From Eledone cirrhosa (Eukaryota), in contig OZ024742.1 of the NCBI GenBank assembly GCA_964016885.1, positions 139,252,001 to 139,316,000 of the forward strand: 64,000 nucleotides of DNA, in the 5' to 3' direction. Below, one piece after another: positions 23,428 through 61,002 of this stretch. Each line of letters opens with the position of its first letter. Position 1 is the first letter of the stretch. The notes below the pieces were generated by a model. That model did not search any database. It was not told the DNA's origin and saw only the letters and a program-made list of their open reading frames with translations. Both the position numbers and the translations under genes were made by a program.

Positions 23428-23451
23428 CTGCTACTACCGTTGAAAGTACAA
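23428..23451 (+). CDS. Micro-exon B1, 24 nt, (P)ATTVEST
   Basis: TATTTACAG|CTGCTACTACCGTTGAAAGTACAA|GTAAGTA. Confidence 0.8.
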
Positions 23452-23586
23452 GTAAGTAATCATTATATAACAATACACATATTTTGTCCATATGAATTAT
23501 TTTACAAGGATAGCAAGCAAATTTATATTCGTTGGTCGATTACAATCTTTGAAAAATCAAATAAGGATTACTTTATAAAATGTATA

Positions 23587-23850
23587 ATGAAGCTAATGAT
23601 AACAGAAGCTGAAATACTTGAAGCCCTCAGCGGCTGTACGATGAACATACAACCCGGCTACGGTGGTCTCCTCTATGCGGTTTACATAGACATGTTAGAA
23701 ATGTTTTGCAATGATTATGATAGTCTTCTCTATGAGTTTAACGTAGACATGCTAGACTTGTTCTTGACACTCCTTCAACCTGCCTGCAGCACAAAGCATT
23801 AATACAGGGAATTTCTCTGTTCTGTAATTCGGGGCGTAGTAAAGGTGATA
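23587..23850 (+). mobile_element. Tx1-like RT remnant in the intron after B exons (recurs at ~28950, 33110, 36671, 40343, 45019, 50873, 55760, 61138)
   Basis: ITEAEILEALSGC...SPGYGGLLY resembles the I/TxxEI...KSPGxDGL motif and the LINE at ~15160-15230. Confidence 0.7.
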
Positions 23851-23929
23851 TATATTAATAAATGATCTAAAAGATATTATTTAATTTTTCATTATCACTG
23901 TAATGATATATATTTATCTGTATTTACAT

Positions 23930-23947
23930 CGGCTGCTTCTACTAAAC
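23930..23947 (+). pseudogene. 18-nt C-type pseudo-exon (acceptor AT, donor AT)
   Basis: TATTTACAT|CGGCTGCTTCTACTAAAC|ATAAGTA. Confidence 0.7.
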
Positions 23948-25300
23948 ATAAGTACTCATGATATAATAATATTTATTTTTGTCCATAAAGATAAATTATG
24001 TTTGTTACAAGCATAGCAGGTAAATTTACAGTCATTGATTTGTTACTACCTTTGATAAATCAGAAAAGAATTGTTTTATGAAATGTTTAATGAAACTTAC
24101 TATAACAGAAACTGAAATATTTGCACACCTGGCCGGTTGATCAAGTGGCAAATCACCCGGTTACGATGGCCTCCTTTCTGAGGTTTACATAGACAAGCTA
24201 AACTTATTCTCCGATGGTTATGATGGTCTCCTCTATGAGGTTTAATCAGACATGCTTGATTTGTTCTGGGCATGATCCAGAGAAGTCAGTATGTCTCCAG
24301 CTCACTGCTTGAGTGTCAAATCCATGCAGTTCAACTGCTTTGACAAACACTGGACGGACGGGACAATGACATTTGTTTGGGTCGTCTGGTTTTGTCTACA
24401 CCTCCAGGTGGTTAAGGACTGGGATGAGGTAGCATGGATATACACATGAGGTAGCATGGAGGCATTGTTTTTATATGCACTCTTTTTTCCTGCTATTAAT
24501 TCTGTCTCTCACTCTTTTAAGTTGTGAAATAGACTGGTTAGCTACGCACGCAGCTGACACATTTCAGCTCGCTACTATATTGCTATATAATGGATGATCG
24601 CATTTAAAGTCCGTTAAAGGTTCTTGGCACTACCATTGTTACCATCGCTTTCCTCTAGCCTTGGAGACATGAACCGAATGCTACCATTCTATTTTATATC
24701 AATGTGAACTGCTATTTCTAATGGCCATCTTCTGATCCTTTGATAATTTATGTGTGCGACACGTTGGCTGAGTTCTTCTGACAGGAAAGAAAAGATTGAT
24801 TCTGTTTAGCTTCCTGTCCCCACGTAAAATTTGTAAATCAGTGGCTAGTTGAGAGATAGAGTCCTATCGGTTGCCAGTTGCTAATAGCTTTACCGTGTCA
24901 GACGTCACAAACAGTCATGGCCGGCATAGACTGGTCTTAGGATTCTGTCGATCGATTGGTTATTGATTAGGCGATACCCGCTGATCAAGCTGCATAAGCC
25001 GATTGTGCATTGTTGCATAATATATGCAGACAGATGGTGCAGTGCACCTTATTGGTGCCTTAGTGCGGTAGAAACTCGAGTCCGGGAACCTTATAGGCAC
25101 CCGTTTTAAGTGCGTTGTGTTGAAGCAAATAATTTGTGTATACTCTGGGAATGTATCTTACATTGCCCATGGAGTGCGCTGAGATACAACCGGTACTGGC
25201 ATTGATAAATATGCTGGGTCCGTCAACCCTTGTTATATATATATATATATATATATATATATATATATATATATATATATATATATATATATATATATAT

Positions 25301-25420
25301 ATTAAAATAACAGATTAAAGTTTAAGCAAAGAATCGCTGCTTTCACCCTTAACGGGATCATCGGAAACTTAAGGGTGAAAGCAGCGATTCTTTGCTTAAA
25401 CTTTAATCTGTTATTTTAAT
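25301..25420. repeat. Hairpin 1: 52 bp arms, 16 nt loop (about 10 copies in the array)
   Basis: ATTAAAATAACAG...CCCTTAA / TTAAGGG...CTGTTATTTTAAT. Further copies at ~30676, 34807, 38388, 42033, 43012, 46712, 47846, 59459, 62846. Confidence 0.9.
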
Positions 25421-57550: not shown

Positions 57551-58877
57551 TATATATATATATATATATATATATAGCCACATATATATATATATATATA
57601 TATATATATATATATATATATATATATATATATATATATATATATATGTGTGTGTGTGTGTGTGTATGTGTGTGTGCATGTATGTAATTCGTCGACGACT
57701 AAAGCTGCAACCCCACCAAGTTTACTTGGTGAGGAGGGTGATTTTGGATACCCTGCAGGACAAAAAACAAAACCTACAAAGGGCGGAAGAACCCTTAAGA
57801 GTCAACAGCCATCCAAAAATGTGTAAATATGTCTATACATATATATGTATATGTAAATCTGTATATGCATGTATATGTATATGTGTGGGGACATAGAAAT
57901 TGTCGGGCTGGATACGATATCGCGCGGTTAAACCCCTGGGAGTGAAGGACCACTAGTCTTTGTCACGGCATTCTTCTACGAAAAGGCAACTCAGGAAACT
58001 GGGATAACTCCGACATAAAACCTGCGGCTCAGTAGTTGCCGATGATGTTGATCTTTTCTTCTTTTCGGGTTATAGCTACTGTCGCTCAGAGAATGGGATT
58101 GGCTCAGTGCACAGTATTTCGTCACTTTAAAAAACATCTTCACGCACACGCATTGCACAATGGTATTAATTAATAATTATTAATAATGTTATATCGTGCA
58201 ATGGCCATACTTGATAACAAGGGGGCAGCCATCATGTATGTATATGATATTAAATAACAGTAAGTATAAGTAGAATTTTTAGACGTATACTTTACACACT
58301 ATATATATATTTCTCAGTTTTCTAAAATGTCGCACAATAGTAAGTCTGTCGAGTGAGTAAAGTAGTCATTGTTGATTTCTAATCACGTTCTGGAGACTAA
58401 AATATATATAATGACTTAGGGAGATAATTTTCTTGAGTAGGTAAGGCGTTATAACGAAATATAAGGCCATATAATGTACCTTCGAATATATTCATTCATT
58501 AATATCGTTTATAAAACAGAAAAGAATTGCCTAATTAAATGTTGTATATTATATATGCTGTAAATTGATATATCATTTAATAATAAGACTGACGATATTA
58601 GTTCTTAAACTATATACAAGGACGATGGGCATGTCAGATAATTTCCAGCCAATAAATGTGCTTAACACACAGTTCAATATTATGACATGATTACTAGCAA
58701 CGAGCTTGGCGTTAGATGTCGAGATTCTGTTCGAGGAGGCGGAGACTCCACCTCATGCGATACTTAATGTTAAGAATTATGGTAACTCTCAATAATGTAT
58801 ATTGAACTGGTATTATAGAAAATAAACAAAATAATTTTTAATCATTATCATAATAAGATATATCTCTGTATTTACAG

Positions 58878-58901
58878 CTGCTGTTCCCACTAAAAGTATA
58901 G
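58878..58901 (+). CDS. Micro-exon B10, (T)AVPTKSI
   Basis: AG|CTGCTGTTCCCACTAAAAGTATAG|GTAAGT. Confidence 0.8.
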   Translation: MLFPLKV

Positions 58902-58939
58902 GTAAGTAATCATTATATAACAATACACATATTTTGTCC

Positions 58940-59415
58940 CTGTCGGGGTCTTACTGGTTCCTATTACCCACTCTACTACCTCAAGTATTGAGTACTTTGG
59001 TGCGTTATGGTCCACCTGGTTCCTTACCACATTTCCTTCGTTATCTAGCTCCTACTCCCGTAGTAGAGCACTTTCCGACCCTACCACGCCGCATCCAGAC
59101 TTTTCCGCTAAGCTCAATTCATTTCACCCGCACCATGCGAAGCCGTCGAAACGGCTTGAGCTCAGCTGTCGGGGTCTTACTGGTTCCTATTACCCACTCT
59201 ACTACCTCAAGTATTGAGTACTTTGGTGCGTTATGGTCCACCTGGTTCCTTACCACATTTCCTTCGTTATCTAGCTCCTACTCCCGTAGTAGAGCACTTT
59301 CCGACCCTACCACGCCGCATCCAGACTTTTCCGCTAAGCTCAATTCATTTCACCCGCACCATGCGAAGCCGTCGAAACGGCTTGAGCTCAGCTGTCGGGG
59401 TCTTACTGGTTCCTA
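58940..59415 (+). repeat. 226 bp tandem repeat (~2.1 copies) related to 57420-57550
   Basis: TGTCGGGGTCTTACTGGTTCC at 58941, 59167 and 59393. Confidence 0.85.
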
Positions 59416-60978
59416 TATATAGATATATATATATATATATATATATATATATATATATATTAAAATAACAGATTAAAGTTTAAGCAAAGAATCGCTGCTT
59501 TCACCCTTAACGGGATCTTCTGAAACTTAAGGGTGAAAGCAGCGATTCTTTGCTTAAACTTTAATCTGTTATTTTAATAAATATTTGCTCTACGGTTCTT
59601 ATATATTTTATATATATTTATCCTTATCGAGCCCTCTTTGGATTTTGGTCTTCAAGTTTATTATTATTACTATATATATATACTTATATATATATATATA
59701 TATATATATATATATATATATATATATATATATATATATATATATATATATATGTGTGTGTGTGTGTGTATGTATGTAATTCGTCGACGACTAAAGCTGC
59801 AACCTCACCAAGTTTACTTGGTGAGGAGGTTGATTTTGGATACCCTGCAGGACAAAAAACAAAACCTAGCAAAGGGCGGAAGAACCCTTAAGAGTCAACA
59901 GCCATCCAAAAATCTGTAAATATGTCTATACATATATATGTATATGTAAATCTGTATATGCATGTGTGCATGTATATGTATATGTGTGGGGACATAGAAA
60001 TTGTCGGGCTGGATACGATATCGCGCGGTTAAACCCCTGGGAGTGAAGGACCACTAGTCTTTGTCACGGCATTCTTCTACAAAAAGGCAACTCAGGAAAC
60101 TGGGATAACTCCGACATAAAACCTGCGGCTCAGTAGTTGCCGATGATGTTGATCTTTTCTTCTTTTCGGGTTATAGCTACTGTCGCTCAGAGAATGGGAT
60201 TGGCTCAGTGCACAGTATTTCCTCACTTTAAAAAACATCTTCACGCACACGCATTGCACAATGGTATTAATTAATAATTATTAATAATGTTATATCGTGC
60301 AATGGCCATACTTGATAACAAGGGAGCAGCCATCATGTATGTATATGATATTAAATAACAGTAAGTATAAGTAGAATTTTTAGACGTATACTTTACACAC
60401 TATATATATATTTCTCAGTTTTCTAAAATGTCGCACAATAGTAAGTCTGTCGAGTGAGTAAAGTAGTCATTGTTGATTTCTAATCACGTTCTGGAGACTA
60501 AAATATATATAATGACTTAGGGAGATAATTTTCTTGAGTAGGTAAGGCGTTATAACGAAATATAAGGCCATATAATGTACCTTCGAATATATTCATTCAT
60601 TAATATCGTTTATAAAACAGAAAAGAATTGCCTAATTAAATGTTGTATATTATATATGCTGTAAATTGATATATCATTTAATAATAAGACTGACGATATT
60701 AGTTCTTAAACTATATACAAGGACGATGGGCATGTCAGATAATTTCCAGCCAATAAATGTGCTTAACACACAGTTCAATATTATGACATGATTACTAGCA
60801 ACGAGCTTGGCGTTAGATGTCGAGATTCTGTTAGAGGAGGCGGAGACTCCACCTCATGCGATACTTAATGTTAAGAATTATGGTAACTCTCAATAATGTA
60901 TATTGAACTGGTATTATAGAAAATAAACAAAATAATTTTTAATCATTATCATAATAAGATATATCTCTGTATTTACAG

Positions 60979-61002
60979 CTGCTGTTCCCACTAAAAGTAT
61001 AG
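60979..61002 (+). CDS. Micro-exon B11, (A)AVPTKSI
   Basis: AG|CTGCTGTTCCCACTAAAAGTATAG|GTAAGT. Confidence 0.8.
   Translation: MLFPLKV

Follow-up and report, generated by a model that had tools for sequence, protein, structure and literature searches.

Predicted micro-exon arrays with an excess of amino-acid changes among exon copies in the octopod Eledone cirrhosa

Relation to described micro-exon genes

The micro-exon genes (MEGs) of schistosomes are described, in the portions of the two accounts available here, as coding for a signal peptide followed mostly by tandem symmetric exons of 6-36 nt, with secreted or membrane-anchored products, recent lineage-specific duplication among transposons, and a ratio of nonsynonymous to synonymous divergence (dN/dS) of the mature part that is raised between species, up to about 1.1 (PMC4350168; PMC4699917). 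The available text of one account presents them as apparently flatworm-restricted (PMC4350168). Analysis of a 64,000-nucleotide stretch of the octopod Eledone cirrhosa (GenBank assembly GCA_964016885.1, contig OZ024742.1, positions 139,252,001 to 139,316,000, forward strand; hereafter the window), together with 200 kb upstream and 400 kb downstream (contig C3; 664 kb in all), revealed three tandem gene-like copies predicted to follow a comparable plan. After exon 1, each copy carries homologous intron-exon units of five types (A, B, C, D, and E), 1-5.7 kb in length, with 7, 22, and 33 canonical micro-exons in genes 1, 2, and 3, respectively. These 62 micro-exons are symmetric in phase 1 and 24 nt long, except one of 15 nt and one of 18 nt. 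Coordinates follow window numbering, continued past both window ends (negative values lie upstream), and L0xx:n denotes a position in a numbered piece.

As far as the MEGs are covered by these sources, the octopod gene resembles them in its predicted signal peptide, in having most of its predicted coding length in symmetric 24-nt exons, and in its transposon-rich setting. It differs in its host, which is an octopod and not a flatworm, in that its exons were duplicated recently and have introns of 1-5.7 kb that are 97% alike, and in that the excess of amino-acid changes was measured among exon copies within the gene, where it is far above the between-species dN/dS reported for MEGs in the available text. 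The likeness is one of architecture, single exons of 5-21 codons being too short for a protein homology search. MEGs also generate a pool of variants through alternative splicing.

The Schistosoma mansoni polymorphic mucins (SmPoMuc) provide the second close comparison. The portions of their description available here report a 27-nt repeat exon in a homogenised unit of about 1 kb, three or four repeat types under purifying selection, a 13-exon 3' region, and a tandem gene cluster (PMC2576457). Within that coverage, the octopod gene is alike in having a signal peptide and a variable number of short repeats, each on one small exon in a duplicated genomic unit, as well as microsatellites and homogenised introns in the unit, tandem genes, and exons that are more different than the introns. 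The introns of SmPoMuc are characterized as >93% alike, and the octopod flank diversity of 0.024-0.036 (flanks about 97% alike) falls on the same side of this value. In contrast to the reported SmPoMuc features, the octopod exons measure 24 nt, the B type alone comprises 26 sequences, amino-acid changes are in excess, and there is a single short hydrophobic candidate last exon. The octopod gene thus works like an MEG or SmPoMuc gene and is assigned to neither, since its host is not that of the MEGs, its exons and 3' region are not those of SmPoMuc, and homology lies beyond the sequence length available.

A design with one small exon per repeat is also found in the Xenopus integumentary mucin FIM-B.1 and in chicken BG. 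Spider silk and SOWgp are cited, in the text available, as repeat-per-exon genes with concerted evolution (PMC2576457). The sharing of this design by FIM-B.1, BG, silk, and SOWgp indicates that it arose outside flatworms and that the architecture as such was already known. To our knowledge, omega (dN/dS) far above 1 among exon copies has not been reported for any of these four. The overall predicted protein layout is in turn like that of CD24, CD52, and trypanosome TcMUC/TSSA, which are fast-evolving surface molecules with a signal peptide, a mature part rich in Ser/Thr/Pro/Ala, and an uncharged hydrophobic C-terminus; these are not made of micro-exon arrays, and no homology with them is claimed. 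No description of an octopus or cephalopod micro-exon gene was found in the full-text literature, a coverage that leaves out most subscription journals. What look new are the occurrence in an octopod and the extent to which amino-acid changes are in excess among the exon copies.

Variation among the B micro-exons

The window contains 11 B micro-exons on the plus strand, located at 23428..23451, 28793..28816, 32951..32974, 36512..36535, 40184..40207, and 44860..44883 (B exons 1 to 6), 50513..50536 and 54550..54573 (7 and 8, both Cys-bearing variants), 55601..55624 (9, apparently part of a short converted stretch, which also covers intron sites -30 and -29), 58878..58901 (10), and 60979..61002 (11). 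A recount reproduced exactly the pattern from which the original prediction had suggested diversifying selection, namely 24-nt exons between AG and GTAAG in seven distinct sequences, with third positions T,T,T,C,T,A,T,A in all 11 copies (0/8 variable) and 12 of the 16 first and second positions variable (Fisher P = 0.0013). Over the seven whole codons the proportion of synonymous differences (pS) is 0 and that of nonsynonymous differences (pN) 0.31, and the 12/16 variable first and second sites compare with 37/425 farther flank sites (P = 1e-9). The flanks had been called near-invariant, and the 28 nt upstream are indeed the same in all 11 copies, with a single difference, in one copy, over the 25 nt downstream. 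They are, however, not specially conserved, with 3/53 variable sites near the exon vs. 37/425 farther away (P = 0.60), and the 28-nt upstream limit ends just before two variable sites (-29 and -30). Projection onto a reference brings a few alignment artefacts into the near flank, where the ungapped count is 1/53.

All 48 B units of the three genes were projected on one reference that reached from 115 nt upstream to 430 nt downstream. Ends lacking homology were masked and flank columns with fewer than 40 letters left out, and 469 flank sites were kept. The 48 exons comprise 26 distinct sequences. Counted without a tree, there are 28 extra alleles at the 16 first and second sites, two at the eight third sites, and 94 at the 469 flank sites, where 4.1 would be expected at the first and second positions from base-matched flank sites (P = 8e-15). 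The exon as a whole holds 30 extra alleles vs. 12 in the most variable 24-nt flank window, and all four bases occur in 4/24 exon columns vs. 0/469 flank columns. Among the 48 copies, two third positions are variable, one by a synonymous change (in two copies) and the other by an amino-acid change (in three copies).

The per-site comparison of exon with flanking intron was run on all units by parsimony and gave 15.4 times the flank rate at positions 1-2 and 1.27 times at position 3 on a flank-only tree, and 10.2 and 0.90 times, respectively, on a whole-unit tree, i.e., positions 1-2 of the B exons are 9-15 times faster than the intron while position 3 keeps the intron rate. Nei-Gojobori counts over the B exons gave a pN of 0.35 and a pS of 0.015 (pN/pS about 23), and codon models on the exon paralogs (seven whole codons per exon, four settings) gave an omega of 21-44 (likelihood-ratio test P 1e-7 to 3e-14), the lowest grid omega within the 95% range being 5-10. 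The exon-focused signal proposed originally therefore persists after correction for unit phylogeny with both trees and the codon model. Each gene taken alone has 9, 13, and 16 variable first and second sites of 16, and 0, 0, and 2 variable third sites of eight. The A, D, E, and C types show 10, 3, 1, and 4 variable first and second sites and none at third positions, a split of 18 vs. 0 with a probability of (2/3)^18 = 0.0007. With position 3 at the intron rate and positions 1-2 far above it, the introns are not unusually frozen and amino-acid changes are in excess. Selection for amino-acid diversity in the B exons is very probable.

Exon and flank histories are loosely coupled, the exon distance between units correlating with flank distance at a Spearman coefficient of 0.42, and five unit pairs that are 2 bases apart over about 500 flank nt have 3, 4, 6, 0, and 0 exon differences. 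The unit at 55601 matches its sister at 258317 up to -56 and from +79, but from -30 on and across most of the exon it agrees with a different unit type. The tract so delimited is no longer than about 135 nt and, since it takes in intron bases, points to DNA-level conversion from an unspliced template.

Predicted gene structure and product

Gene 2 is the predicted copy that lies partly inside the window (11433..64000, plus strand) and it continues past base 64000. A TATA-like box at 11433..11442 (plus strand), a putative promoter about 60 nt 5' of the ATG, precedes the coding part of predicted exon 1 (11497..11545, plus strand), which consists of a 16-codon signal peptide, MKTLSIFSMFIVVIVC, and one base, followed by a phase-1 donor GTAAGT at 11546. 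The peptide has a basic residue and then a hydrophobic core (maximum 11-residue hydropathy 3.21). Exon 1 is identical in the three copies (-87996, 11497, and 148058) and these are its three full-length genome matches; the signal exon is thus invariant, yet the surrounding 6.7 kb differs by just 25-29 substitutions, so few changes would be expected. Also on the plus strand are a decayed micro-exon unit at 18531..18555, with the acceptor retained and the donor lost, and A-type 24-nt micro-exons with AG/GT sites at 22247..22270 and 27612..27635. Beyond the window, gene 2 has nine further micro-exons (six B, two D, and one E; plus strand) between 64746 and 87048. Neither the stretch from exon 1 to the first unit nor that from the last unit to the candidate last exon yielded further micro-exons. 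A D exon at -62718 (L014) is shortened from 24 to 15 nt by an in-frame loss.

The candidate last exon of gene 2 begins at 100892 (L024:6892; plus strand), 37 kb past the window, in phase 1, with 21 whole codons, VQISSTSLLFLMTSALLVNNY, and a stop; an AATAAA lies 303 nt downstream of its acceptor. It has a hydropathy of 2.56, no charged residues, and no Pfam match. The coding part has the same sequence at -45136, 100892, and 301307, one site per copy, and these are its three full matches in the genome. An E-like acceptor at 87234 was considered as the last exon and rejected, being a truncated unit. An exact 60-nt duplicate, which runs from the end of the candidate last exon across the predicted stop into the start of the 3' untranslated region, was found at C18:17783707-17783766 (L061:4707-4766) with a transposon end on either side. 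It would be a weak hint of transcription if its template was RNA, and a DNA-templated insertion is also possible.

The phase-1 frame of the original prediction agrees with exon 1, which ends in phase 1, with the candidate last exon, which opens in it, and with stops within the micro-exons, which occur in 0/62 in phase 1 vs. 48/62 in phase 2 and 4/62 in phase 0. No micro-exon junction is able to create a stop in phase 1, and all 48 B exons retain the AG acceptor, the GTAAG donor, and the 24-nt length. From these features, the B units are very probably coding micro-exons read in phase 1. The micro-exons would supply 53, 176, and 262 codons in genes 1-3, or 58%, 82%, and 87% of the predicted coding length, and their residues are 46%, 36%, and 29% Ser+Thr. 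Cys accounts for 7% of micro-exon residues in gene 3 vs. 0-1% in genes 1 and 2. Between 164028 and 230496, gene 3 contains a block of B exons with Cys at the sixth whole codon, one Cys per eight residues, and these exons are mostly missing from genes 1 and 2.

The assembly (3.0 Gb) was scanned for further copies. No processed gene copy was found genome-wide; exon 1 and the last exon each had three matches, the C18 fragment of 60 nt being the sole addition. Two splice-site pattern scans placed 54/57 and 51/55 matches at this locus and the remaining 3 and 4 at scattered sites, where reversed-pattern controls gave 6 and 15; they revealed no second array, although diverged arrays with other flanks would escape them. 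No RNA run was listed for 11380-11600, and the three runs found contain the intron and upstream sequence in full; their short-read contigs look like DNA from a single sample, which may be the source.

A signal peptide, a Ser/Thr-rich part, and an uncharged hydrophobic C-terminus form the layout of a glycosylphosphatidylinositol (GPI)-anchored mucin-like protein. The original prediction had left the functional class open, and the layout would narrow it to a secreted, probably GPI-anchored, mucin-like protein; that the predicted product is of this kind is fairly likely. The reading favoured as a whole, and considered likely, is a GPI-anchored Ser/Thr-rich surface protein in which the micro-exon excess results from diversifying selection on an array otherwise homogenised by duplication and short conversion. 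In this model the micro-exons would be spliced together, any subset retaining the frame, to give products of about 90, 215, and 300 residues (genes 1-3) from which both hydrophobic ends would be removed and which would be O-glycosylated. Unequal crossing-over and conversion would turn over the 1-5.7 kb units and remove neutral changes, while new repeat variants gaining or losing Ser/Thr, Pro, Cys, or charge would be favoured and then spread. As to the selective agent, microbe or parasite binding at an exposed epithelium is a guess that falls a little short of an even chance, a structural or other role is a more tentative guess, and gamete or self recognition a rather doubtful one. Venom is the least likely of the three classes named originally (immune, venom, and gamete recognition).

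Alternative explanations and genomic surroundings

Concerted evolution alone, by which old diverged exon types are kept under purifying selection and conversion homogenises only the introns, has been proposed for SmPoMuc and spider silk genes, and the same intron-over-exon homogeneity is reported there, in the text available (PMC2576457). Conversion is active at the octopod locus and the flanks are about 97% alike, as this explanation expects. Old divergence should, however, have left synonymous differences, and position 3 is at the intron rate; third positions a single base from variable ones match the introns in uniformity, so that intron homogenisation sparing the exons, the other possibility raised originally, does not suffice by itself. 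The 26 B sequences are also not the few stable types that it would predict, 15/30 derived B alleles are missing from every A, D, and E exon, and a G at exon position 2 occurs in 7/7 A, D, and E exons and in 0/48 B exons, which renders this explanation unlikely. Import of B variants from A, D, and E exons was rejected on these last two counts. A targeted mutator, through deamination or through adenosine-to-inosine (A-to-I) edited RNA copied back to DNA, would act with no protein selection, and both the tight limitation of the variation to exons and the heavy RNA editing of coleoid cephalopods speak for it. Such a mutator would be blind to codon position, and third-position A and C sites beside variable sites are fixed or nearly so; exon transitions/transversions (12/18) are like those of the flanks (45/49), A>G makes up just 3/30, and the mapped conversion tract takes in intron bases and points to an unspliced template, leaving the mutator extremely improbable.

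A different product under the same gene structure and selection, i.e., a protein of the gamete surface, one for self-recognition, or a structural one such as a cement or coat cross-linked through Cys, is possible but less probable than the mucin-like surface protein. The Cys content of gene 3 compared with genes 1 and 2 is consistent with it, the heritable insertion on C18 would imply germ-line or embryonic transcription if RNA-copied, and CD52 is a small GPI-anchored mucin-like peptide on mammalian sperm. A structural product fits less well, since structural repeats would usually be expected to homogenise rather than diversify. A reading of the units as non-coding repeats, as remains of a dead gene, or as a product of misassembly would accord with a gene model taken from DNA, a transposon-rich region, and an uncertain copy number; it is very unlikely in view of the codon-position asymmetry, the intact splice sites and length in 48/48 B exons, and the shared phase of the signal and last exons. 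Consensus error, which the original prediction had named as a possible source of the variants, fits poorly at the three sites listed out of the 12 variable ones, three exon variants being present at a depth of 38-184 in contigs of the three runs from one sample (perhaps the source) and the contigs crossing the exon carrying 0, 3, 4, and 6 differences.

Several observations count against the favoured reading of a diversified GPI-anchored surface protein. The gene model was read from DNA sequence alone, the signal peptide and GPI-signal-like tail were judged by hydropathy alone, the last exon was chosen by eye among 64 strong acceptors, and another phase-1 acceptor (103715) is equally hydrophobic and uncharged. 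The synonymous side of the B-exon tests amounts to about 5.6 sites per exon. Gene conversion violates the tree assumption and inflates the parsimony and codon-model counts, with four gametes at 38/153 exon site pairs of the B exons; because of this inflation of tree-based figures, the claim rests on the tree-free allele count. Contig depth in the three-copy stretch is 9-12, 15-19, and 12-18 in the three runs vs. 8-10, 10-13, and 11-15 in adjoining single-copy DNA, a ratio of about 1.2-1.6, although contig depth is no copy number. Some gene copies may be tandemly placed alleles, the more so as genes 2 and 3 share 20.6 kb at 99.7%, or may be absent from that sample; in the former case paralogy would become length polymorphism and the selection signal would be unchanged. 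Finally, 33/34 C units have a non-canonical splice site through three separate lesions, yet vary only at positions 1-2.

The 18-nt C unit at 23930..23947 (plus strand) has AT at both acceptor and donor, the other window C units begin at 29295, 33453, 37014, 40686, 45362, 51216, and 61480 (plus strand), and 26 more copies lie outside the window. The splice pairs of the 34 units are AG/AT (13), AT/AT (9), GG/AT (6), GG/GT (5), and AG/GT (1). Loss of a G by mutation to A is a very common change. The simple reading of the C units is recent loss, and any other needs an unexplained use. A-to-I editing could in principle rescue the AT donors of C units and the AA acceptors of two A units. The bolder proposal that editing switches on the 13 AG/AT C units and the two AA-acceptor A units, linking editing to exon choice, is very improbable.

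The region is rich in transposons. The 160 open frames of at least 200 codons listed in the 664 kb are transposon- or satellite-like by eye, and domain scans of six long frames gave matches to long interspersed nuclear elements (LINEs) and PIF1 helicase, two blanks, and satellite noise; no flanking gene usable for synteny was found among them. A LINE within the gene has its best match in Argonauta hians (64% identity), and the common short interspersed nuclear element (SINE) resembles the octopus SINE, both in keeping with an octopod host. An intact-looking LINE ORF2 of 1150 codons (endonuclease, reverse transcriptase, and zf-RVT) lies in the last intron of gene 2 (L023:4617-8066); the element is also in gene 3 and is missing at the matching place in gene 1. 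Helitron-like PIF1 helicase frames of gene 3 (L031:3498-5363, which was scanned, L033:5537-7402, L034:8546-9916, and L037:2-1672) were duplicated together with the units. About 65 kb of a 45-nt satellite lies directly upstream of gene 1 (L003-L010, about -174000 to -109000), with minus-strand open frames of up to 1064 codons whose Pfam matches look like repeat noise. Satellite remnants of 2 kb near -16800 and 123800, one per duplication junction, suggest that the satellite may have seeded the tandem duplications. At 58940-59416, a 226-nt tandem duplication lies at an insertion by which the unit of B exon 10 is cut short. Several units contain near-perfect hairpins between (TA)n tracts, as well as inverted SINE pairs (25300-25430, with equivalents in other units, and 26979-27430); these are possible sources of double-stranded RNA or possible recombination sites.

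Signal-peptide micro-exon genes have been treated, in the available text, as a flatworm-parasite device for surface variation (PMC4350168), and a like design is predicted here in a free-living cephalopod. The 24-nt exons with kilobase introns are likely to be missed by annotation, so other such genes may be hidden. Each unit carries its own neutral control, which makes the array a clean natural test of how selection maintains protein diversity under concerted evolution. An independent octopod MEG-like combinatorial surface code, in which frame-neutral skipping among 20-30 selected 8-residue cassettes, conversion, and individual copy-number change would equip every animal or cell with an individual glycopeptide coat that serves in recognition by the immune system, of symbionts, or of gametes, is a doubtful extension. 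Such a design, combined with a very strong amino-acid excess that is measurable in one genome, points to a hitherto unknown interface for recognition or an arms race in octopuses.

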